Assembly: GCA_965215185.1 (NCBI GenBank) | Contig: OZ244034.1 | Span: forward strand, 2,336,001 to 2,400,000 | Length of the DNA stretch: 64,000 bases | DNA from: Acidimicrobiia bacterium | GTDB lineage: Bacteria; Actinomycetota; Acidimicrobiia; Spongiisociales; ZC4RG35 | Reading direction: 5' to 3' | Shown here: piece by piece, positions 2,981 through 64,000 of the stretch | How positions within the stretch are numbered: the stretch's first letter is position 1 | How the letters are laid out: every line of letters starts with the position of its first letter | The notes under the pieces: model-generated | Told to the model about the DNA's origin: nothing | The model's database searches: none | The model's input: only the letters and a program-made list of their open reading frames with translations | Program-made: the position numbers and the translations under genes

Positions 2981-3170
2981 CCCGACCGCTATCGGCCCGT
3001 TCTATTCGCCATGCCTGGCTGACAGACATTATTCATCAGATCCACCAGCGGTCACGGGGCACGTATGGGGCGCTGCGGGTGCATGCCGAACTGCGGTTGG
3101 GTCATGGAATCTCGTAGGACACAACGCGGTGGCGATGCTGATGCCCAGGAGCCGGCCTGGCCGGTCTCAG
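2981..3170 (+). mobile_element. IS3-family OrfB N-terminal fragment
   Basis: Frame reads RPLSARSIRHAWLTDIIHQIHQRSRGTYGALRVHAELRLGHG, typical of IS3 OrfB. Confidence 0.75.
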
Positions 3171-3187
3171 TAGGTGACCGACGGCCC

Positions 3188-3462
3188 ATTGATGATCACC
3201 CCGAAGACGACAGCACCTTCGTAGCTTCTTACATGATCTCCGATCCGGAAGGAACCACCACCGCCACCATGTTGACCGGCACCGACCGAGACGACCTGCA
3301 AATCACCAACACTGGACAGCTCAGTTTCCAGGAAATCCCCGACTATGAAAACCCCACCGATTCCAACCGCGACAACACCTACCAGGTAACAATCGAAACC
3401 ACCGCCGGCAGCCACACCACCCGCCACAACCTCACCGTGAAAGTCACCAACCAAGACGAACC
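3188..3462 (+). pseudogene. Orphan cadherin-domain fragment
   Basis: SDPEG...GQLSFQEIPDYENPTDSNRDNTYQVTIE...VKVTNQDEP cadherin motifs. Confidence 0.8.
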
Positions 3463-3696
3463 TGAGGTTCCCCCGGTTTGGCGGACTGTTTTGGTTGGTG
3501 TTCATGCCACCAGTTGTTGTTGGTGGCGGTAGTTTACGGGGCTTTGTTGGTTGTTGTAGGAGTGTCTCCTTTCGGGGTTGTACCAGCCTTCGATGTACTC
3601 GAAGATTGCCAGGCCCTGCTGGTGGCGGGTCTCCCATTTCTGGCGGTCCAGCAGTTCTGTTTGGAGGGTGGCGAAGAACGATTCCACGACGGCGTT
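3463..3696 (-). mobile_element. IS3-family right end with transposase C-terminus
   Basis: Terminal TGAGGTTCCCCCGGTTTGGCGGAC; minus frame NAVVESFFATLQTELL...AIFEYIEGWYNPERRHS. Confidence 0.85.
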
Positions 3697-4355
3697 GACG
3701 CCCCTATAGTCAAATTTTGGGTTTAGGGGGTGGTGTGTTGTCGGGTTTTGTGGTCGGTCATGACGCGTTGGTAGACCTCGCGGGCGAGGAAGCGTTTCAG
3801 GCAGCGGATGATGTCCTTTTTTGAGAGGCCCTGGGCGGTGCGACGAGCGACGTAGTCGATGGTGGGCTAGTGGAATCGCATTCGTACTATCGCTACTCGG
3901 TACAGCGCCGCGTTGGCTTGACGGTGCCCGCCTCTGTATAGACGATGCCTGTTGGTCTGTGCGGAGGAAGCCGGAATCGGACACGTGCCACAGAGTTTGG
4001 CGAATGCGGCCTCGGAACGGATCCGTTCGGGGTTGTCACCGAACACGATGAGAAGCTCCGCCGCGGAATCGGCTCCGATGCCAAAGCCGTCTCGCAGTGT
4101 TGGGGAGGCTTGGGCGGTGAGGTCGTCGAGCACGGTGTCGTGGGAGCGGATCTCGGTGTCGAGGTGGAGCCAGCGGCGTGCTAGTGCTCTTGAGTGAGTA
4201 CTTGGCGGAGGCTGTGGGGGTGTTGATCACCGAGACCCGAAAGCGTGCGCAACGGTTGATGAGCGCTTTGTTAGAAAGCCCATCGAGGGATTCGCGCAGC
4301 TCGGCCGGGGTGTTGACGATGATTGCCTTGAGGGTGATGATCGCCGAGGTTCGGC
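3697..4355 (-). mobile_element. IS110-family element D: 3' half of recombinase (pseudogene) plus right end
   Basis: FGDNPERIRSEAAFAKLCGTCPIPASS...RHRLYRGGHRQANAAL; in-frame TAG at 3867-3869; right end TTGACTATAGGGGCGTC abuts IS3 codons AAC GCC. Confidence 0.85.
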
Positions 4356-4790
4356 GAGCCTGTATACATGTCTGTGTGAGGTGGGTTCTTTATTGCTGTG
4401 GCTGGTGTGAGAGCCGGTCCGAGAGGAGAGTGTTTTGATGCCTATTGAACATGATGTGACGGAGGCGGCTGTGGTGGCTGCTGGTGTGGTGTCTGATGAG
4501 GTGGTGGAGGCGGTGGTTTCGGACGCTGCTGCTGGTGGTGTGGACCTTCTGGGTCCTGATGGGGTGTTGGCTGAGTTGACGAAGCGGATTCTGGAACGTG
4601 CTTTGGCTGAGGAGATGACCGATCATCTGGGCTATGAGTCCGGTGATCCGATGGGTCATGGTACGGGTAAGAACCGTAACGGGTCCTCTCCCAAACAGGT
4701 GCTGACTAAAGATCGGCGCGGTGGATTTGGACATTCCACGGGACCGTAACGCTACGTTCGAACCGAGGATCGTTCCCAAGGGCGCCCGGC
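4356..4790 (+). mobile_element. IS256-family element: left end and 5' part of transposase (frameshifted)
   Basis: End GAGCCTGTATACATGTCTGTGTGAG; LLGPDGVLAELTKRILERALAEEMTDHLGY...RNG and DIPRDRNATFEPRIVPKG. Confidence 0.9.
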
Positions 4791-5230
4791 GCCGTAGCTG
4801 CCGGTGCCTTCCACCCCAACCCGCACCACACGACCCTGGGATCTCAACCAGCCGCCCAGTTCCTCAAAGCCGGTTGCATCGGCCGGGAACGGAGCGGTTC
4901 CCAGGACTCGACCGGCGGTGTCCACTACCGCCGCGACATGACAATCGCGATGGGTGTCCACCCCGCCAAACACCTCAACCAGGCTCTCTTTTTGTGACAT
5001 GAATGTCTTCTTCTTCCTTGGATAGACTCGCGGGTATCACCGGACCGGAAGCGGTGGACAGAACACTCATGATGGTGTGGAGAAGCAAGGCTCCTATAAG
5101 GTCACATCCGCTCCCGGGTCGGGGAGTGTCCCCAGGCCGAAAGCAGGCCGACAGATCATGATAAGGCACAAACGGCCAGTTTGTCAAGGGGTCAGACCCG
5201 CCCCGACCAGGGACCCCACCATTATCGAGT
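4783..5230 (-). mobile_element. IS110-family element C: left end, bridge-RNA region and recombinase N-terminus
   Basis: ORF from 5000: FGGVDTHRD...GVEGTGSYGAG; left end ACTCGATAAT at 5230; fused to IS256 through the microhomology cccggcgc. Confidence 0.85.
5045..5215 (-). ncRNA. Putative IS110-C bridge RNA (left target guide TTGACAAAC at 5187-5179, right target guide CATG, donor guides ATAGGAGC and GAGTG)
   Basis: Scaffold aligns with the A1 and A2 non-coding ends; variable segments fall at the guide positions; boundaries approximate. Confidence 0.75.
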
Positions 5231-5589
5231 GTTTTGCAAATCGCTTTTCGGGGGTGGGGGTTGTTTGAGCTTTTTGGTGGGGTGGTTTGGGGTTGGGGCG
5301 AGTTCTGGGGGTTTAGTGGGGGGTTTTCCAGTAGCCGGTAGAGGTGGCGGGCGATGTACCGTTTGAGGCAGCGTCGTGCTTCGCGGGTGGTTTTTCCTTG
5401 GCTGATGCGTTTGGCTATGTAGGCCTGGGTTTTGGGACAGTGGCGGGTGCGGGTGATGGCCATGTTGTGGAGCGCGCGGTTGAGTTGGCGGTCACCGCGT
5501 CGGTTGAGTCGGTGGCGGGTGCGTTGCCCTGAGGAGGCTTGGAGGGGTGCTACGCCGGCTAGCCGAGCGAAGGCGGCTTCGTTACGGCA

Positions 5590-5766
5590 GCGGCAGCGTC
5601 CGAAACCACCGCCTCCACCACCTCATCAGACACCACACCAGCAGCCACCACAGCCGCCTCCGTCACATCATGTTCAACAGGCATCACAACACTCTCCTTT
5701 CGGGCCGGCTCTCACACCAGCCACAGCAATAGAGAACCCACCTCACACAGACATGTATACAGGCTC
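5590..5766 (-). mobile_element. Second IS256 left-end fragment, inverted relative to the 4356 copy
   Basis: Reverse complement of roughly 4356-4530 with few differences. Confidence 0.9.
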
Positions 5767-6249
5767 GGTTTGAGCGCCTCGGCGGACGGTTTCCAGTACC
5801 CGCAGGGCTTCTCGGTCTCCCCGAGCGCGGGGAGCCGAAAGCCGGGAGCGTCCCAGCGCCTGGCGGGCGGCTCGTCGAGCGTCCAACGCGTCGGTTTTGG
5901 CGCCGTCGCGGGTCGGGTGGGGATGGCCGAACTCTATTACCCATTCACCAGCCTCAGAAAGGTAGTCGGTGACTCCTGCTCCGTAGCTACCGGTTCCTTC
6001 CACCACCCACGCTCGTTCCGCGGATGTGTGCTGGTTTGTCCACTCCAACAGTTGAGCATATCCCATGCTGGTTGTCCCAAAGCGCGCAGATGTCAACTCT
6101 CCGGTGGTGGCAGTGTCCACTACCGAAGCGGTGATCCAGTCACGGTCAGGGCCTATTCCTATCGTATGTTTTACCATCTCGGCTAGCATCGTATTTGTTC
6201 CTCTTTTCTGGTGTTACCGGTTAGAGCTGGCGTACCCCCGAGGAGCGGC

Positions 6250-6460
6250 AACCGTTACGGCAGACCTGTGATGGGTCACACCCATTTGGGTGGACAGGCT
6301 TCTGATCAGGCCAGCAACGAAGCACCCAGGCGGGCGCAGCGAAGGGTGTCGGACACATCGATTTGAAGACACGGACCGGTCGGTAAAGACAGAAACGGTC
6401 AGGGTTTTGGAGGGTCACGACACCACCGCTGCGCCTAGCCTGGCAGACTCTGAGAGCACC
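6250..6460 (-). ncRNA. Putative IS110-B2 bridge RNA (left target guide CCAAAACCC at 6410-6402, right target guide CAAATCGA at 6365-6358)
   Basis: Scaffold aligns with the B1 left end; donor guides AGAAGC and CACAG conserved; boundaries approximate. Confidence 0.78.
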
Positions 6461-6462
6461 CC

Positions 6463-7686
6463 CTACATACTCACAGGGTTTGGTGCGGTGAGCCATTGGT
6501 GGTATCGGGTGGCGAGTTGGTGGTTGTGGTAGAGGCCTCGTTCGAGTTGTGAGAGGCGGTTTGGGTGGGCGTGGACGGCTGTGGCGGCCTGAGCGAGAGT
6601 GGTCCGGGTTTTTTGGCGTAAACAGCGTAGATCGGCGCCGTTGGGTGTTGAGGGTGGGTCGGTCAACAGTCGGTAGACCTGGCGGGCGATGTGGCGTTTC
6701 AGACAGCGGATGATCTCTCGGCGGGTTTTGCCTTCCGCCCGGCGTTTTTCGACGTATTCGATGGTGGTCTGGTCGCAGCGCATCCGAGTGGTGGCGATCC
6801 GCCACAAAGCGTTGTTGGCTTGGCGGTCGCCACCGCGGTTGAGGCGATGGCGCACAGGTCCTGAGGATGCCTGGACGGGACTGGCGCCGCACAACGCCGC
6901 GAAGGAAGCTTCCGATCTCATGCGTTCGGGGTTGTCACCAGCTGCGACCAATAAGGCGGCGGCGGTGTCCGGGCCGATCCCTGTGGTGGCCAACAGCGCC
7001 GGGTTGGCCCGGGCGCAGAGATCTTTGATCCGGGTGTCGAGTTCTCCGATCTCTGCGGTGAGGGTCTGGTATCTGCGGGCCAAGAGACGGAGGACATGTT
7101 TGGCGTAGGTGATGGTGGTGTCACCATCACCCGGACGAAAACCGGCACAGACCTTCCCGCGGGCTTTGGGGGAGAGCCCCCGAAGTTGGTGTTTGACCTG
7201 GTCGGGAGCAGTGACCACCAGGGCGTGCAGCTGGTTGATGGCCTGGGTACGGGCCTTGATCGCCGAACGGTGGGCCACTGTCAGCATCCGTATTGCTTCT
7301 ACTGGTCCGTTCCCGCTTTTGGGCAACCCGGTGGCCTGCCCGTTCAAAGCAGCCCGCGCCGCTGCCCGGGCGTCTGTGACATCGGTCTTGCCGAAGCGGC
7401 GGCGTAACTGGCGGTTGGGCCGGTTCACTTCCACCACCTCAACACCAATGCTCATAAGGTGGCGGGTCAGGCCGGCGCCGTAGCTGCCGGTGCCCTCCAC
7501 CCCGACCCGCACAACACGACCCAGGGACCCCAACCAGTTGTTCAACCGTTCATAACCGGCGACATCGGCCCGAAACGGCGCCGAGCCAAGGACCCGACCG
7601 GTGGCATCCACCACCGCCGCGACATGGGTATCACGGTGGGTGTCGACCCCACCAAACACAATCCGATCATCCTCTGACATATGCAT
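6463..7686 (-). CDS. IS110 recombinase A1 with C-terminal XRE-type HTH extension
   Basis: DEDD residues (GVDTH, GVEGTG, KTDVTDA), ASSG serine, RHRLNRGGDRQAN; tail DLRCLRQKTRTTLAQAATAVHAHPNRLSQLERG; last codons come from the B2 end. Confidence 0.92.
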   Translation of the reverse strand: MHMSEDDRIVFGGVDTHRDTHVAAVVDATGRVLGSAPFRADVAGYERLNNWLGSLGRVVRVGVEGTGSYGAGLTRHLMSIGVEVVEVNRPNRQLRRRFGKTDVTDARAAARAALNGQATGLPKSGNGPVEAIRMLTVAHRSAIKARTQAINQLHALVVTAPDQVKHQLRGLSPKARGKVCAGFRPGDGDTTITYAKHVLRLLARRYQTLTAEIGELDTRIKDLCARANPALLATTGIGPDTAAALLVAAGDNPERMRSEASFAALCGASPVQASSGPVRHRLNRGGDRQANNALWRIATTRMRCDQTTIEYVEKRRAEGKTRREIIRCLKRHIARQVYRLLTDPPSTPNGADLRCLRQKTRTTLAQAATAVHAHPNRLSQLERGLYHNHQLATRYHQWLTAPNPVSM

Positions 7687-7753
7687 CTTCTCCTTCAAAG
7701 GTAGAATTCGTTTCTGTTCTCTCTGACCCGAAAAAACGGTGGACAGACCACTC

Positions 7754-9153
7754 TGTGAGTATTGGGGGGGCCTTGTAGAGGCTGCCAGGATTGGCGTCAG
7801 CGGTGGTGTCGTGACCCGAGACCACTCTGACCTTTGTGTCTTTGCCGTGATATGTCCGACACCGCCGCGACGCCCCTGGGCGTTCCGTTGCTGGCCTGAT
7901 CAGAAGCTTGTCCACCCATGGGGTGTGACTCATCACAGTCCTGCCGTCACGGTTTGCGCCTTGTGAGGCACTAGCCCAGTTCGCACAAGAAAGAGAAGGT
8001 TTCTTATGTTGGCCACAATGGTAGAGCATGTGATCGGGATCGATCCTGATCGTGACCGGGTCACCGCCGCGGTAGTAGACACTTCCACCACCGGAGAACA
8101 AGCGACTGCGGTGTTCGGAACCACCCGGCTGGGATATGACCGGTTGTTGAAATGGGCAGACCAGCACACTCAGACGGCTGAGCGGGTGTGGTCGGTGGAA
8201 GGCTCGGGCAGTTACGGAGCAGGCGTGACCACCTATCTCGCTGCCCGAGGTGAACTAGTGGTGGAGTTCAACGATCCCACCCCTACCCGCGACGGCGCCA
8301 AAACCGACGCACTGGACGCTCGGCGGGCCGCTCGCCAGGTGCTGGGCCGTCCTTGGCCATCTGTCCCGCGGGCTAGGGGAGACCGCGAAGCCTTGCGAGT
8401 GTTGGAGACCACCCGCCAGGGCGCCCAAGGGGCCAGAGTATCGGCCATCAACCAGCTAAAAGCCCTGGTAGTGACCGCGCCAGTCGATCTTCGGGACCAA
8501 CTCCGAGGTCTGAGCACAACTGCTCTGGTGGCCAAGTGCGCGGCGTTTCGAATCCGACCCGCCTCCGTCAACGAACTGACCGCCACCAAACAAGCCCTAC
8601 GTTCTACAGCCAGACGCATCCGCAACCTCAACAATGAAATAGCAGAGCTGAAAACGCCCATCGCCGAAATGGTCACAGCCGCAGCTCCGCAACTGCTCGA
8701 CCAATTCGGGATTGGTCCGGTCACCGCCGCCCAAGTGTTCATCGCCTGGTCCCACCCAGGCCGATGCCGCAACGAGGCCGCGTTCGCTCGCCTGGCCGGC
8801 GTAGCACCCCTCCAAGCCTCCTCTGGACAACAAACCCGCCACCGGCTAAGCCGCTACGGCGACCGCCAACTCAACCGCGCCCTCCACACCATCGCTATCA
8901 CCCGCGCTCGGGACTGCCCCAAAACCCGGGCCTACATCGCCAAACGCATCAGCCAAGGAAAAACCACCCGAGAAGCCCGCCGCTGCCTCAAACGGTACAT
9001 CGCCCGCCACCTCTACCGACTCCTACAAAACCCGCCCCCAACCCCGGCCGAACCAGCCCCACCGTTCCACTCGGAAACGCCGCAACACCCCCACAAGCTC
9101 AAACATCCTCAAATCCCCGCCAAAAGCCTCGATTTGGAGAACATAGAAGCATC
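7754..9153 (+). mobile_element. IS110-family element B1, apparently complete, TC core at both junctions
   Basis: ...AGACCACTC|TGTGAGTATT...CATAGAAGCATC|ACATGG; removing it restores the A-type non-coding end. Confidence 0.92.
7770..7960 (+). ncRNA. Putative IS110-B1 bridge RNA (left target guide AGACCACTC 7819-7827, right target guide GTGA 7847-7850, donor guides AGAAGC 7902-7907 and CACAG 7934-7938)
   Basis: All four guide segments match the observed target and the reconstructed circle junction; boundaries approximate. Confidence 0.85.
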
Positions 9154-9292
9154 ACATGGCAAGAGCAAGGCTCCTATCAGGTCACAGCCGCCCTGTCGGG
9201 AGAGCACCGCCCCCAGGCCGGAAGCAGGCCGACAGATCACCACAAAGGCACAACAGCCAGGTCGGAGTCGAGTCAGACCCGCCCCGGCCTAG
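8006..9292 (+). CDS. IS110 recombinase B1 (ORF reads through the right end into flanking DNA)
   Basis: GIDPDRD, VEGSGSYG, KTDALDA, APLQASSG, RHRLSRYGDRQLNRAL. Confidence 0.92.
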   Translation: MLATMVEHVIGIDPDRDRVTAAVVDTSTTGEQATAVFGTTRLGYDRLLKWADQHTQTAERVWSVEGSGSYGAGVTTYLAARGELVVEFNDPTPTRDGAKTDALDARRAARQVLGRPWPSVPRARGDREALRVLETTRQGAQGARVSAINQLKALVVTAPVDLRDQLRGLSTTALVAKCAAFRIRPASVNELTATKQALRSTARRIRNLNNEIAELKTPIAEMVTAAAPQLLDQFGIGPVTAAQVFIAWSHPGRCRNEAAFARLAGVAPLQASSGQQTRHRLSRYGDRQLNRALHTIAITRARDCPKTRAYIAKRISQGKTTREARRCLKRYIARHLYRLLQNPPPTPAEPAPPFHSETPQHPHKLKHPQIPAKSLDLENIEASHGKSKAPIRSQPPCRESTAPRPEAGRQITTKAQQPGRSRVRPAPA

Positions 9293-9300
9293 GGGCACCT
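9154..9300 (-). ncRNA. 5' part of the putative A1 bridge RNA (left target guide TCGACTCCGACC at 9271-9260, right target guide GGTG); continues at 7753-7735
   Basis: Near-identical scaffold to 61855-61990 with different guide segments. Confidence 0.8.
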
Positions 9301-9312
9301 ATAAGTATGAGT

Positions 9313-9845
9313 GGTTGGAGTCGACGTGGACGGGCGTAAACATGTGCTGGGGGTATGGCTGGGCGACGGCGGTGAAGGCGCCAAATACTGGTTGTCGGTA
9401 CTTACCGAGATACGCAACCGAGGCCTCGAAGACGCGCTGATCGTGTGCTGTGACGGCCTGAAAGGGCTCCCGGACGCGATCGAGGCGACATGGCCCCAGG
9501 CGCTGGTGCAGACCTGTGTGATCCACCTGCTGCGAGCCTCTATGCGGCTCTGCAGTTGGAAAGACCGAAAAACCATTGTGGCGGGCTTGCGACGCGTTTA
9601 CACCGCGGTAAACGCCGAAGCCGCTGTTGAGGCGTTGGACGAGCTCGAGGAACAATGGGGAAATCACTATCCCGGCGTTATACGAATATGGCGCCAGGCG
9701 TGGGAAGAGTTCACCCCGTTCCTGCGGTTCCCGCCAGAGCTTCGCAAGGTCGTGTACACAACCAACGTCGTCGAAAGCGTCCACTATCAACTACGGAAAG
9801 TCACCAAAACCAGGGGGCATTTCCCCACCGACCAATCCGCCCTCG
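9313..9845 (+). mobile_element. IS256-family transposase middle/C-terminal fragment (continuation of the 4356 element)
   Basis: VGVDVDGRKHVLGVW...CCDGLKGLPDAI...QTCVIHLLR...YTTNVVES...RGHFPTDQSAL. Confidence 0.9.
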
Positions 9846-9989
9846 CACTTGGATCGCGCCTCGCCCAACAGCATCCAAATGCTGGGGCCGAGCGAGTTGA
9901 TATCGGTGGCCTTGAAAGTGATCCACGGGTGGGACTTCAGATAGGAGCGCACAAGTGCCGCTCTACTATCGGTATATTGTTTTGACCAT
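9846..9989 (-). pseudogene. Short N-terminal remnant resembling a Fic-family protein
   Basis: YLKSHPWITF...IWMLLGEARSKCE, recalled as a Fic-family N-terminus; no Fic motif left. Confidence 0.5.
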
Positions 9990-10069
9990 TCTGATGTCCA
10001 ACTTGTTGTCCAGTAAAGAGACAGTGCAGTCAAGAGGTTTGCGGGAGTTCCCCCGCGTTCTAGTCGGGG

Positions 10070-60383: not shown

Positions 60384-60510
60384 CCCCGCACCCAAACTGG
60401 GCACCGCCCGCCCACCAACAGCCGGACCGTCGATCAACGCTCGTTCCTAGCGGCCCGGCATCCAGGCCGGGGCTTGATCGGCGTAGTCGTTGTCGATGCT
60501 CCTATGGTTG

Positions 60511-61772
60511 TCAAATCGAGTTTTGGTGGGGTGTGAGGGCGGTGAGCCATTGGTGGTATTGGGTGGCGAGTTGATGGTTGTGGTAGATGCCTCGCTCGAG
60601 TTGTGAGAGGCGTACTGGGTAGGTTTGTAGGGCTGTGGCGGCGTGGGTGAGGGTTGTTAGCGCGTTTTTGCGTAGACAGCGAAGATGGGCGCCGTTGGGA
60701 GTTTCGGGTGGATTGGTGAGCAGGTGGTAGATCTGGCGGGCGATGTGGCGTTTCAGGCAGCGGATGATCTCCCGGCGGTTTTTGCCTTCTGTTTGTCTTT
60801 TTTGGGCGTAGGCGATGGTGGTCTGGTCGTAGCGCATGCGGGTGATGGCGATCCGCCACAGGGCATTGTTGGCTTGGCGGTTGCCGCCCCGGTTGAGACG
60901 GTGGCGTATGGTCCGTCCCGACGACGCCTGGACGGGACTGGCGCCGCACAATGCTGCGAAGGACGCTTCCGATTGCATGCGTTCGGGGTTGTCACCAGCG
61001 GTGACCAACAGGGCAGCGGCGGTGTCGGCGCCGACTCCGGAGGCGGCTAACAGCGCCGGTGTCGGCGCCGACTCCGGAGGCGGCTAACAGCGCCTGGGCG
61101 CAGAGATGGTTGATCTGGGTGGTGAGCTCTTCGATCTCGGCGGTGAGCGCCTGATATCGGCGGGCCAGGGAACGCAGCGCCTTTTTGGCGTAGGTGACGG
61201 TGATGGTGGCTGTTCGGGGACGGAAACCGGCGCAGGCCTTGACGCGGGCTTTGGCCGGCAGTCCCCCCAGTTGGTGTTTGACCTGGTCGGGGGCGGTTAC
61301 CACCAAAGCGTGCAGCTGGTTTATGGCCTGGGTGCGGGCTTTGGTCGCCGAACGGCGGGCCACCGAAAGCATCCGTATTGCTTCCACCCGACCGTTGCCG
61401 CTTTTGGGCACCGCAGTGGCCTGTCCGTTGAGAACCGCCCGTGCCGCTCCTTGGGCGTCGGTGGCGTCGGTCTTGCCCAACCGGCGGCGCAACTGCCGGT
61501 TGGGACGGTTCACCTCTGTCACCTCGACACCGGCCTCGGTTAGATAACGGGCCAGGCCGGCGCCGTAACTGCCCGTGCCCTCTATACCGACCCGGACCAC
61601 TCGACCGTGTGACCCCAACCAGTCGCCCAGTTGCTGATAACCGGCCTGCATCGGCCACGAAGGAGGCTGTTCCCAAGACCCGACCGGTGCTGTCCACCAC
61701 CACCGCCATATGAACATCCCGGTGGGTGTCCACCCCACCAAACACAATCCGATCATCCTTTGACATATGCAT
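60511..61772 (-). pseudogene. IS110 recombinase A2 with C-terminal HTH; frameshift near 61650 and a 37-bp duplication
   Basis: Three frames homologous to A1; tandem 37-mer at 61021-61057 and 61058-61094. Confidence 0.9.
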
Positions 61773-61809
61773 CTTCTCCTCTCAAAGGTAGAATTCGTTT
61801 CTGTTCTCC

Positions 61810-61990
61810 ACTGACCCGAAAAAGCGGTGGACAGACCACTCAGAATGAGGGAGAAGCAAAGCTCCTATCAGGTCACAGCCGCTCTGTCGGGAGAGCACCG
61901 CCCCCAGACCGAAGGCGGGCCGACAGATCGACTCAAAGGCACAATCGGCCAGGTAGCTGTCGGGTCAGACCCGCCCCGGCCTGGGGGCAC
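61810..61990 (-). ncRNA. Putative IS110-A2 bridge RNA (left target guide GACAGCTACC at 61961-61952, right target guide GTCG, donor guides ATAGGAGC and TGAGTG)
   Basis: Guides match the flanks GACAGCTAACC|GAC and the circle junction ATAGGAGCATC|ACTCA; boundaries approximate. Confidence 0.82.
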
Positions 61991-64000
61991 CTATAAGTAT
62001 GAGTGGTTAGCTGTCTCAGGTTGCTGCCATCCGCATACATGACAAAGATCTCATCATCACCGTTAAGATCACTGGTGAAGGCAATTGCATAGCCATCCGG
62101 GGACCACACAGGACCACGGTCATCAGCGTCGTTGTCGGTGAGTCGCTGCTTGTTGGACCCGTCCGCGTCCATCACATAGATCTCATCATCACCGTCACGG
62201 TTACTGGTAAAGGCCACGCGGGTCCGATCCGGTGACCACACCATCCCATCTGCCGGGCTGTAGTTGTTGTCGGCCAAGGCTTGCGGCTCGCCCCCCTCCA
62301 CATTCACTGCGAATAGCCCGAAGTTACGACCGCGGGCATTGGCTACATACAACTGCCCACCATCCAGAAACCAGACAAATCCTTCCACCGAAGTGGTGTC
62401 GTCGGTGAGCTGCCGAACATATCGGCCTTGGTCTCCCACCACAAATACCTCCAGGTCGAAGCCGGAACCCCGACTGGTGAAAGCAATTGTGGCACTGTCG
62501 GGCGCCCAAGTTGGATCCCACACCTGATAGTCACTGTCGGTCATTTGGTACAGGTTGCCGCCAACCGGATCCACCACAAAGATCTCACTGTCCCGGCCCC
62601 GGCTGCCCAGAAAAGCTATCCACATGCCGTTGGGAGACCACACCGGCCCAGTGTCATTGTCGTTGTTGTAGGTGAGTTGCTGCTGATTGGCGCCGTCATC
62701 ATCCATCAGGAGAATCTCGCTTCGGTAGGAGCGGGTGAAGGCGATGGTCTTGCCGTCAGGCGACCAGGCCTGTTCGCTTTCAGCAATGTGGTTGCTGGTG
62801 AGTTGTCGACGCGTCCCACCTTCGGCCTCTACCACGAAGATCTCGGTGTCACTGCCCAAAACGCCCTGATAGGCCACATACTTGCCGTCGGGGGACCATT
62901 CGGGATGGCTGTCCTGGATAGAGTCATCGGTGATTTGCTGTAGGTTGCCACCATCAGAATCCACTACAAAGATGTCTCCATGCAGGGAGAAGGTAATCCG
63001 CTTGCTGTCAGGCGACCACGCCGGATAGGCACCGTGTACAAGGAGGCGCGGGTTTCCGCCGTCCGAATCCATCAGAAAAATATTTGAATGGCTATAGAAG
63101 GCGATGGTTGTGCCGTCAGGCGACCACGCCAACGCCCAATCGCTGTAATCGTTGTCGGTGAGTTGTCGATCGTTAGTACCGTCCGAATCTATCAAGTAGA
63201 TCTCGGCGTTGGGATCTCCCTGAGGGTGACTGTGGTAGGCGATTCGCTTACCATCCGGTGACCAAATCAGGTCATCGATGGAAGCCCTTGGGACAGTTGG
63301 CGCAGATCCCCGCCATCGGCATTAACCACGAAGAGATCCCCCGAAGAGACAAAAGCGACTTGGGTGCCGTCAGGCGACCACGCCGGAAGCCGACCACTGG
63401 CAAGATATTGCTTGCCTTCCCCATCCGCATCAATAGCGAAGATCTCACCCCGGCTGTGGAATACAATTCGAGAACCGTCAGGCGACCACGCCGGGTCGTC
63501 TCCGTGAGTCAGGATTCGGTGATTGCTGCCGTCAGCATCCATTACCACTGCGTCATCATCCTGTCCGCGGGTGTCGTACCTGGTGAAAGCGATCCGCATC
63601 TTGGCTTGTTCAGCAACCGCGTAATCCGCAACCGGCAGGGCAACCAGACCCAGAGAACGGGCCAGGAATGTGGCCATCTCCCCTCGGGTCACCGGAACCT
63701 CGGGACAGAATCTCGCCGGGTCAGTGGCACACCCTCGCGTAACATTGGCGGCCGCCAAAGAGTCGATGCTCCCCGCGTGAGTGTTGCCCACGGTGTCAAC
63801 AAACCGGCGGAAGCAGCGGGGCGCAGACCCATGGCGCGGACGAGGAATGTTGCCATCTGCCCACGACTCACGAAAGCATCGGGACAGAACTTCTCCGGAT
63901 CGGCGCTGCGACCTTTGGTTAGACCCAACTCGGCCAGCCTTTCCACATACGGTGCCCACCACTGTCCGGCGTCCACATCCGCGAATCGCGAGGAAATCAC

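Follow-up and report, generated by a model that had tools for sequence, protein, structure and literature searches.

The insertion sequence (IS) IS492, a member of the IS110 family, is reportedly excised precisely and is said to have a role in phase variation. For IS621, passages of the published description (Durrant et al. 2024, PMC11208160; structure paper PMC11208158) assign a 9-nt left guide to the bottom strand and a 4–7-nt right guide to the top strand, place the donor guides in a second loop, and report natural guides with 0–2 mismatches. In those passages, mismatch and bulge tolerance of engineered bridge recombinases has so far been only an aside. Two recent preprints argue that IS110 elements copy out while the donor site stays occupied. 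Here we analyse A2, an IS110-family element that interrupts a gene for a PD40-repeat β-propeller protein in a 64,000-nt stretch of an Acidimicrobiia bacterium genome (contig OZ244034.1; this whole stretch is called the window below).

A2 and its relatives resemble IS621 in their two-domain DEDD + Tnp recombinase, in the long non-coding left end upstream of the gene, and in a short right end with a −35-like hexamer. They also share a target loop in which 9 nt on the 5′ side read in the same sense as the left flank and about 5–6 nt on the 3′ side complement the right flank, donor guides that match the element ends, and diverse natural guides on a conserved scaffold with 0–2 mismatches. As for IS621, repeated DNA is preferred, which in the family of A2 is mostly other insertion sequences. 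Unlike IS621, this family lacks a CT core (CC or AC before the crossover in the target, TC at the donor right end, and a single base in common at the junctions), its left guides are found in two registers, 0 and +1, and its left donor guide match (ATAGGAGC) ends 3 nt before the tip; the A2 RNA, predicted from sequence, matches no Rfam or other curated model. The likeness to IS492 of Pseudoalteromonas atlantica is that A2 lies in a surface-related gene and that its removal leaves the reading frame intact at the site. Unlike IS492, for which precise excision is reported, A2 is known only as an occupied and an empty allele, its recombinase is broken and its host gene is broken elsewhere. Relatives of A2 target multicopy DNA, as a preprint describes for ISPpu10 and other IS110 members (10.64898/2026.03.19.712850): some target the 3′ end of an IS that is present 19 times in genome G012, and others the right ends of their siblings. 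A2 itself, unlike ISPpu10-type targeting, occupies a single-copy, non-repeated site.

Taken alone, A2 is an ordinary dead IS110 copy, and the bridge-RNA model as published already rests on the natural variation of guides. Its family is possibly more useful, as it offers dozens of insertions with known empty sites within one genus. These show guide evolution in small steps, a shared core of a single base and frequent one-base displacement of the left guide, and their occasional guide/site mismatches suggest guiding in trans. They are natural data on mismatch and bulge tolerance.

Results

It is highly probable that A2 is a decayed bridge-RNA element of the IS110 family, inserted under RNA guidance at a near-cognate site in register +1, and that its decay came later. 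The 232-nt left end would encode the bridge RNA. An internal loop holds a left guide that runs in the same sense as the left flank and, on the IS621 model, would pair with the bottom strand. The right guide in this loop is the reverse complement of the right flank, and a second region of the left end has sequences that match both ends of A2. The element entered the PD40 gene between ...CAGCTAACC and GACAACGAC..., duplicating nothing beyond an ambiguous C. Its choice of site would have been RNA-guided and near-cognate, with 8 of 9 bases of the left guide matched one base further from the crossover than is canonical, and the transposase gene decayed after this insertion. The element limits, the empty allele, the guide/flank matching across the family, both registers and the decay are seen directly; from these we infer transcription of the RNA, the pairing geometry and the dating of the mismatches to before or after the insertion.

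Limits of A2 and its empty site

Comparison with homologous copies in the same 3.12-Mb genome (12 other left ends, about 15 right ends) set the ends of A2. Its exact limits are given by public contigs from runs X1 and X2 (two studies), which connect 60494 to 62005 and skip the 1,510 nt between them, with one letter at the joint that fits either side. A2 therefore runs from ACTCATAC... (62004) to ...ATAGGAGCATC (60495). The left junction reads ...CTGAGACAGCTAACC/ACTCATAC... and the right junction ...ATAGGAGCATC/GACAACGACTAC... (a slash marks the point of joining), and the pre-insertion site is ...CTGAGACAGCTAACC/GACAACGACTAC..., which can also be written ...CAGCTAACC/GACAAC..., with only one C in common and hence ambiguous. 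As expected for an IS110 element, A2 lies at a specific sequence with no multi-base target duplication, and its tips, ACTCAT... and ...GCATC, are not inverted repeats (by eye). A contig from run X7 has the occupied form, with 0 differences across both junctions. The strain behind the empty allele of X1/X2 shows 11 differences over 495 nt.

The original prediction had placed the feature at 60447–62015. This interval does contain the element, but it also includes the tail of the host gene and the 11-nt left target. Two other parts of that prediction, that precise removal restores the site and that a single C is common to both junctions, agree with the X1/X2 contigs, which carry exactly that joined allele with one ambiguous letter at the joint ('both = 1').

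Match between guide and target

On the minus strand the non-coding end reads ...GGTCTGAC-CCGACAGCTACCT-GGCCGATTGTGCC-TTTGAGTCGATCT-GTCGG..., so that both segments noted beforehand, GACAGCTACC and GTCG, are there. In register +1, the left guide ACAGCTACC agrees at 8 of 9 positions with ACAGCTAAC, a nine-base stretch whose last base directly precedes the crossover C; in the canonical register (register 0) it agrees at 3 of 9. This confirms that the left match needs a displacement of 1 nt. An equivalent view is that GACAGCU-ACC forms 10 pairs with GACAGCTAACC, with one bulged target A. On the other side, the reverse complement of the right guide, GACTC, matches the right flank GACAA at 3 of 5 positions, and only C+GAC would pair. 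The whole guide therefore matches the occupied site at 11 of 14 positions.

A random 9-mer reaches at least 8/9 in one of the two registers with p ~ 2e-4. Among 1,750 mismatched guide/flank pairs from the same family 2.2% do so, which is a conservative null, since the guides are related. No perfect target for the A2 guide was found in the genome, where no site lies within one mismatch of the 14-mer and none scores 13/14 or more in either register. The 'opposite slip' that had been described for B2, a second IS110 type in the window, was not found, as its 9-mer AGACCACTC adjoins the crossover C in register 0 (by eye).

Transposase and predicted bridge RNA

The transposase gene of A2 is broken into three frames. 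Alignment to A1, a copy elsewhere in the window whose transposase gene is 79% identical, shows one extra nucleotide near 61647 and 28 extra nucleotides near 61092. The second lesion lies in a tandem-repeat region (61014–61094, copies 37 nt apart), and the extra base at 61647 is missing from other copies in runs X7, X1 and X2. The Pfam domains DEDD_Tnp_IS110 and Transposase_20 fall on separate fragments of A2. In A1 the open reading frame (ORF) is intact, encodes 411 amino acids and has both domains (PF01548, E = 1.3e-24; PF02371, E = 1.2e-18), so this lineage has the two-domain recombinase of the IS110 family, DEDD/RuvC-like at the N-terminus and Tnp at the C-terminus. A2, which cannot excise itself, is a dead copy from an abundant IS110-family (bridge-recombinase) lineage of this genus. 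The decay proposed earlier is evident in its two frame-breaking lesions.

The 232 nt from the A2 tip to the start codon have a predicted fold more stable than those of 200/200 shuffled sequences (z = −3.5). A consensus fold of nine copies has a 5′ hairpin, a basal stem (GGUC.GAC / GUC.GGCC), an internal loop of 13 + 13 nt and a short distal hairpin; compensatory changes in it are few (6 of 39 pairs). Searches of the 64-kb window against Rfam gave one tRNA only at the gathering thresholds, and for the A2 left end they gave chance-level matches only, with no matching family.

The left end also has, in sequence, the second pair of guides expected of a bridge RNA, those matching the element's own tips. 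ATAGGAGC is in both the left end and the right-end tip of every copy for which both were found. A second region of the left end holds both AUAGGAGC, which repeats the right-end tip, and the reverse complement of the left-junction sequence (C/A)CACUCA. The donor right guide changes along with the dinucleotide that precedes ACTCA, being of the ..CCACTCA kind where the junction has CC and of the ..AACACTCA kind where it has AC. Between subfamilies, donor ends and donor guides hardly vary.

A1 and A2 had been described as nearly identical except around the guides. Their distal left ends differ in 19 of 158 aligned columns (88% identical scaffolds). The differences are indeed enriched in the guides, with 7 of 17 guide columns compared to 12 of 141 others (Fisher p = 0.0011), but near-identity was somewhat overstated. 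The central claim, that A2 is a bridge-RNA type IS110 element with a target loop that differs from that of A1 on a similar scaffold and matches its own flank, holds. Such a change of guide on a shared scaffold ('natural reprogramming') is the known covariation principle of bridge RNAs.

Guide rule and registers across the family

Guide and flank were compared for left ends from this genome and from the congener loci that were fetched, which gave 43 distinct pairs; these include paralogous copies and kin, and so are not 43 independent events. Positions 4–12 of the loop were taken as the left guide, in the sense of the left flank. In registers 0 and +1, the guide matched its own left flank at no fewer than 8/9 positions in 28 of the 43 pairs, and at no fewer than 7/9 in 35; adding register +2 brought in three more pairs (38/43 with at least 7/9). 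The mean left match was 7.4, compared to 4.4 for permuted pairs (2,000 permutations, highest mean 5.1). The right guide, the five bases before a constant GAUCU, is the reverse complement of the right flank. It scored 5/5 in nine elements, 4/5 in four, 3/5 in three (including A2), 2/5 in one and 1/5 in one, so that 13 of 18 reached at least 4/5; this count omits 25 of the 43 elements, for which the regular expression found no right end (nested or truncated copies, or loci too short). The target loop of this family thus co-varies with its flanks, in the same sense on the left (38/43) and as the complement on the right (13/18).

Among the 38 pairs at 7/9 or better, 20 were in register 0, 15 in register +1 and three in register +2, the last all from one subfamily whose left-end start may have been misplaced by the regular expression. 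Six different guides reach 9/9 in register +1, and one guide, AACCTAACC, occurs in both registers (8/9 in register 0 at locus L054, 9/9 in register +1 at L016). For register 0, empty sites are known for L013, whose genome also holds unoccupied copies ...ACAGCGACC/GAAAGG, and for c1005, which has three unoccupied paralogues. For register +1 they are known for c3102/c3012, c1098, c1095 and A2, and four target types have such support. The element limits given by the empty sites are the same in both register classes. The +1 register is a regular alternative in the IS110 family of A2, and is not peculiar to A2. The original prediction that one extra target base is tolerated is thus supported, with 15 of the 38 guide-matched insertions in register +1.

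The two registers differ in how the guides meet at the crossover. With register 0 the left guide extends onto the crossover C, where the left and right duplexes would overlap; with register +1 it ends short of the C and the duplexes would abut. Only one base is common to target and donor, rather than a two-base core. Three alternative models of the core were tried. That '+1' elements carry an extra C themselves was ruled out by the empty sites, a CA core suits c979 but does not account for c3102 or A2, and a core at loop positions 12–13 predicts left junctions one base too short. The +1 register may be possible because the guide ends in C-C-U and the target core is CC, which would allow two pairing frames, one with a U-G wobble. 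That the left guide works in two registers in the lineage of A2, with about 40% of guide-matched insertions displaced, is a tentative reading to which we give slightly less than an even chance. If true, bridge RNAs would have one base of slack built in at the core, which would bear on off-target prediction for bridge editors, and the core geometry would be unlike that of IS621. Among the papers listed by a literature search on bulges with bridge RNA or IS110, none dealt with target bulges.

Does the guide exploit a repeated propeller motif?

The original prediction held that the guide exploits a motif, RQLTD, repeated many times in an expanded family of surface proteins. A regular expression for PD40-like blade starts found 74 other sites, spread over 33 loci of the genome; Q[LIVM]T is present in 35. 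Across these 74 blades the left guide matched at 6/9 at most and the whole guide at 9/14 at most, compared to 8/9 and 11/14 at the occupied site. None of the 74 is occupied by an element, and the genome's 12 other left ends all lie outside PD40 genes. The genome-wide count of GACAGCT(A/C)ACCGAC-like sites that had been proposed gave no other exact copy of GACAGCT[AC]ACCGAC. The 13-nt restored target likewise has no other exact copy in the genome and five with one mismatch, none in a propeller gene; paralogous blades differ from it by at least two mismatches. The motif is thus not repetitive as DNA, owing to codon degeneracy, and the A2 site is single-copy.

A second copy with the A2 guide was not found among the BLAST hits in which a guide could be read (61 genomes). 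Exact-pattern scans for this guide gave no hit in a one-genome-per-species collection and none in metagenome contigs, collections that possibly do not cover this or a near-identical genome. As no second copy was found, the proposal that other copies with the A2 guide lie in QLTD codons cannot pass its test, and with no blade above 6/9 and none occupied, we do not retain the idea of a guide that exploits a repeated motif.

Origin of the guide

The left ends closest to A2 are 87–89% identical (BLAST) and carry the guides CCGACACCAACC/GTTTC (L012), TCGACAGCGACC/GTTTC (L013) and TCGACACCTACC/GTTTC (L014), where the slash separates left and right guide. L013 and L014 lie at variants of one site, ...A(A)ACAGCGACC/GAAAGGAG. 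This home target is the 3′ end of another, multicopy IS, present 19 times in G012, 8 times in G015 and 6 times in G007, and it is absent from the present genome, in which it was searched for. Variants of the home target (ACAGCGACC, ACAACGACC and ACACCGACC) parallel the guide variants (loci L077, L080, L074, L075 and others).

Compared to the guide of L013, that of A2 differs by one base in the left 9-mer, one in the three preceding loop bases and two in the right 5-mer. Its match to the L013-type home target, 8/9 + 2/5, is close to its match to the propeller site (by eye). Within the 9-mer and 5-mer there are three changes; two of them add matches to the propeller site and the third removes one (by eye), a signal that is suggestive but weak. 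The A2 guide looks inherited with small changes, as a 1–3 base variant of guides in sister genomes. Most likely, a drifting guide whose home target this genome lacks made a stray, near-cognate landing in the propeller gene, and the insertion is best read as something other than an adaptation to the RQLTD motif.

Alternative explanations

Several points weigh against an RNA-guided, near-cognate insertion. The donor-binding loop is not seen as a clean internal loop in the consensus fold, and both transcription of the left end and the termini of the RNA are presumed from sequence. The kinship among the 43 pairs lessens their weight. The family core, with CC or AC in the target and TC at the donor right end (by eye), differs from that of IS621, and the +1 register is not derivable from the IS621 geometry. 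The match of A2 is also unexceptional genome-wide, where, counting either register, 12/14 is reached at 49 sites and 11/14 at 597, so that base counting alone does not explain the choice of site. Finally, L019 (G011) and L028 (G002) are complete elements whose own guides do not match their sites (3–4/9 and 1–2/5). They lie at ...CTGAAATC(C)/ sites that fit the guide of another subfamily, which means that the guide an element carries need not be the guide that placed it; they may have been guided in trans by the bridge RNA of a sibling, or their left ends may have been converted later. Their sites, together with the near-invariance of donor ends and guides across subfamilies, raise the possibility that A2 too was placed in trans and that the likeness between its own guide and flank is a coincidence. 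We regard this as very improbable, because 8/9 next to the crossover is rare both for random 9-mers (p ~ 2e-4) and under the family null (0.022), and because no tabulated guide of this genome fits ACAGCTAACC/GACAA better (by eye).

The guide could instead have fitted its site perfectly or nearly so at insertion, with the one left and two right mismatches arising by later drift in a dead element. A2 is indeed decaying, with two frame-breaking lesions and a left end that differs by about 11% from its nearest relatives, and most members of the family match at 13–14 of 14 positions. The displacement is a different matter. The extra target A belongs to a reading frame that has been preserved, and the X7 contig has the same flank with 0 differences; a later change in the target therefore does not account for the displacement. 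Nor does an insertion or deletion in the guide, whose loop has 13 nt as in the other 42 tabulated pairs. A like mismatch, at guide position 8 in register +1, is also present in L017. As target frame and loop length are conserved, later drift cannot explain the one-base displacement, and we consider this alternative unlikely. We give scarcely any credence to a guide reprogrammed to the RQLTD motif of an expanded propeller family, with clean excision acting as a reversible switch of a surface protein. The site does encode QLT/DN at the start of a PD40 blade, 35 blades have Q[LIVM]T, two of the three changes from an L013-type guide create matches (by eye), the empty allele exists in related populations, and the reported precise excision of IS492 is a precedent within the family. 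But the third guide change loses a match, the other blades match the left guide at 6/9 at most, codon degeneracy leaves the motif non-repetitive as DNA, and no other blade is occupied nor was a second copy of the guide found in any search made. The strain with the empty allele differs at 11 positions in 495 nt, and its allele is as likely to be ancestral as excised. The host gene has a frameshift of its own, and the two preprints report copy-out with the donor site intact. A reversible switch is accordingly unlikely for the A2 copy, and a near-cognate, RNA-guided insertion remains the preferred explanation.

Features of the locus and the host gene

Table 1. Features of A2, its host gene and related elements in the window.
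Feature	Position	Strand	Sequence, basis or remark
A2, IS110-family insertion sequence, 1,510 bp, complete but decayed	60495–62004	minus	homology and contig joints
A2 left non-coding end, predicted bridge RNA	61773–62004	minus	upstream of transposase start; fold and consensus structure
Target-binding loop, 5′ side (predicted)	61951–61963	minus	CCGACAGCUACCU; same sense as left flank
Left target guide (predicted)	61952–61960	minus	ACAGCUACC; 8/9 in register +1
Target-binding loop, 3′ side (predicted)	61925–61937	minus	UUUGAGUCGAUCU
Right target guide (predicted)	61930–61934	minus	GAGUC, then a constant G that would pair with the crossover C
Donor-loop left guide (predicted)	61861–61869	minus	GAUAGGAGC; same sense as right-end tip ATAGGAGC(ATC)
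Donor-loop right guide (predicted)	61836–61842	minus	UGAGUGG; reverse complement of CCACTCA at left junction
A2 transposase gene, three frames (61047–61772, 60992–61756, 60511–61008)	60511–61772	minus	ORFs, Pfam, alignment to A1
A2 right end	60495–60520	minus	...CTCGATTTGACAACCATAGGAGCATC
Left target of A2, 11 nt	62005–62015	minus	GACAGCTAACC; codons of RQLT
Right target of A2	60486–60494	minus	GACAACGAC; codons DND
Host gene body, PD40-repeat β-propeller protein	62005–63195	minus	Pfam PD40, E = 2.9e-48
Host gene, last 15 codons and stop	60448–60494	minus	translation
A1 distal left end	9160–9316	minus	guide loop TCGACTCCGACCT at 9259–9271
A1 remainder	6463–7753	minus	both Pfam domains on intact ORF 6463–7698
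B2, second IS110 type	~7754–9159		intact 428-amino-acid ORF; nested in A1 left end

The flanks of A2 are in one frame, ...GSNLRQLT on one side and DNDYADQAPAWMPGR followed by the stop codon on the other. The host gene also has a frameshift near 63270 (region 63050–63420), where ...DLRQLSQGLPSMT and a stop are followed by ...SIDDLIWSPDGKRIAYHS... in another frame, and the orthologue in G007 reads through this point. Barring an assembly error, the host gene thus has a break unrelated to A2. Orthologues are present in five congeners, G007, G002, G011, G013 and G016 (loci L042–L045 and L048), and have an extra blade of 44 amino acids (HNQATDREPAWSPDG...QLT) exactly between the sequences that flank A2. 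Deletion of this blade by A2 was ruled out, as the empty allele of X1/X2 joins the same flanks and also has no blade; its loss is a feature of the lineage, unlinked to A2.

Near its ends A2 has a perfect −35 hexamer, TTGACA (60509–60514), 14 nt from the right-end tip, and CATACT at positions 4–9 of the left end (61996–62001). Judged by eye, these would form a promoter with 17-nt spacing across the junction of a circle or a tandem pair, as is described for IS621. A 331-nt contig in run X2 goes from the left-end tip (62007) back to 60555, covering 60555–60654 and 61855–62007 with 64 other letters between them. It looks like a right-end/left-end junction of a related copy, in a circle, a tandem pair or a nested insertion.

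A1 lies in a nest of mobile elements (window 3000–9990), where it splits an IS256-like transposase gene (4435–4790 and 9317–9985). A remnant, B1 (5743–6478), adjoins its right end, and a truncated element of a third type, C1 (~4790–5235), is in the same nest. One subfamily (guides TTGACAAAC and TTTGCAAAC) inserts into the right ends of its siblings (...CTCGATTTGACAAAC/) and forms nested arrays, which are found at C1:1095800–1099000 (here C1 is the genome coordinate prefix), at 909100 in the genome, and at 5235 in the window.

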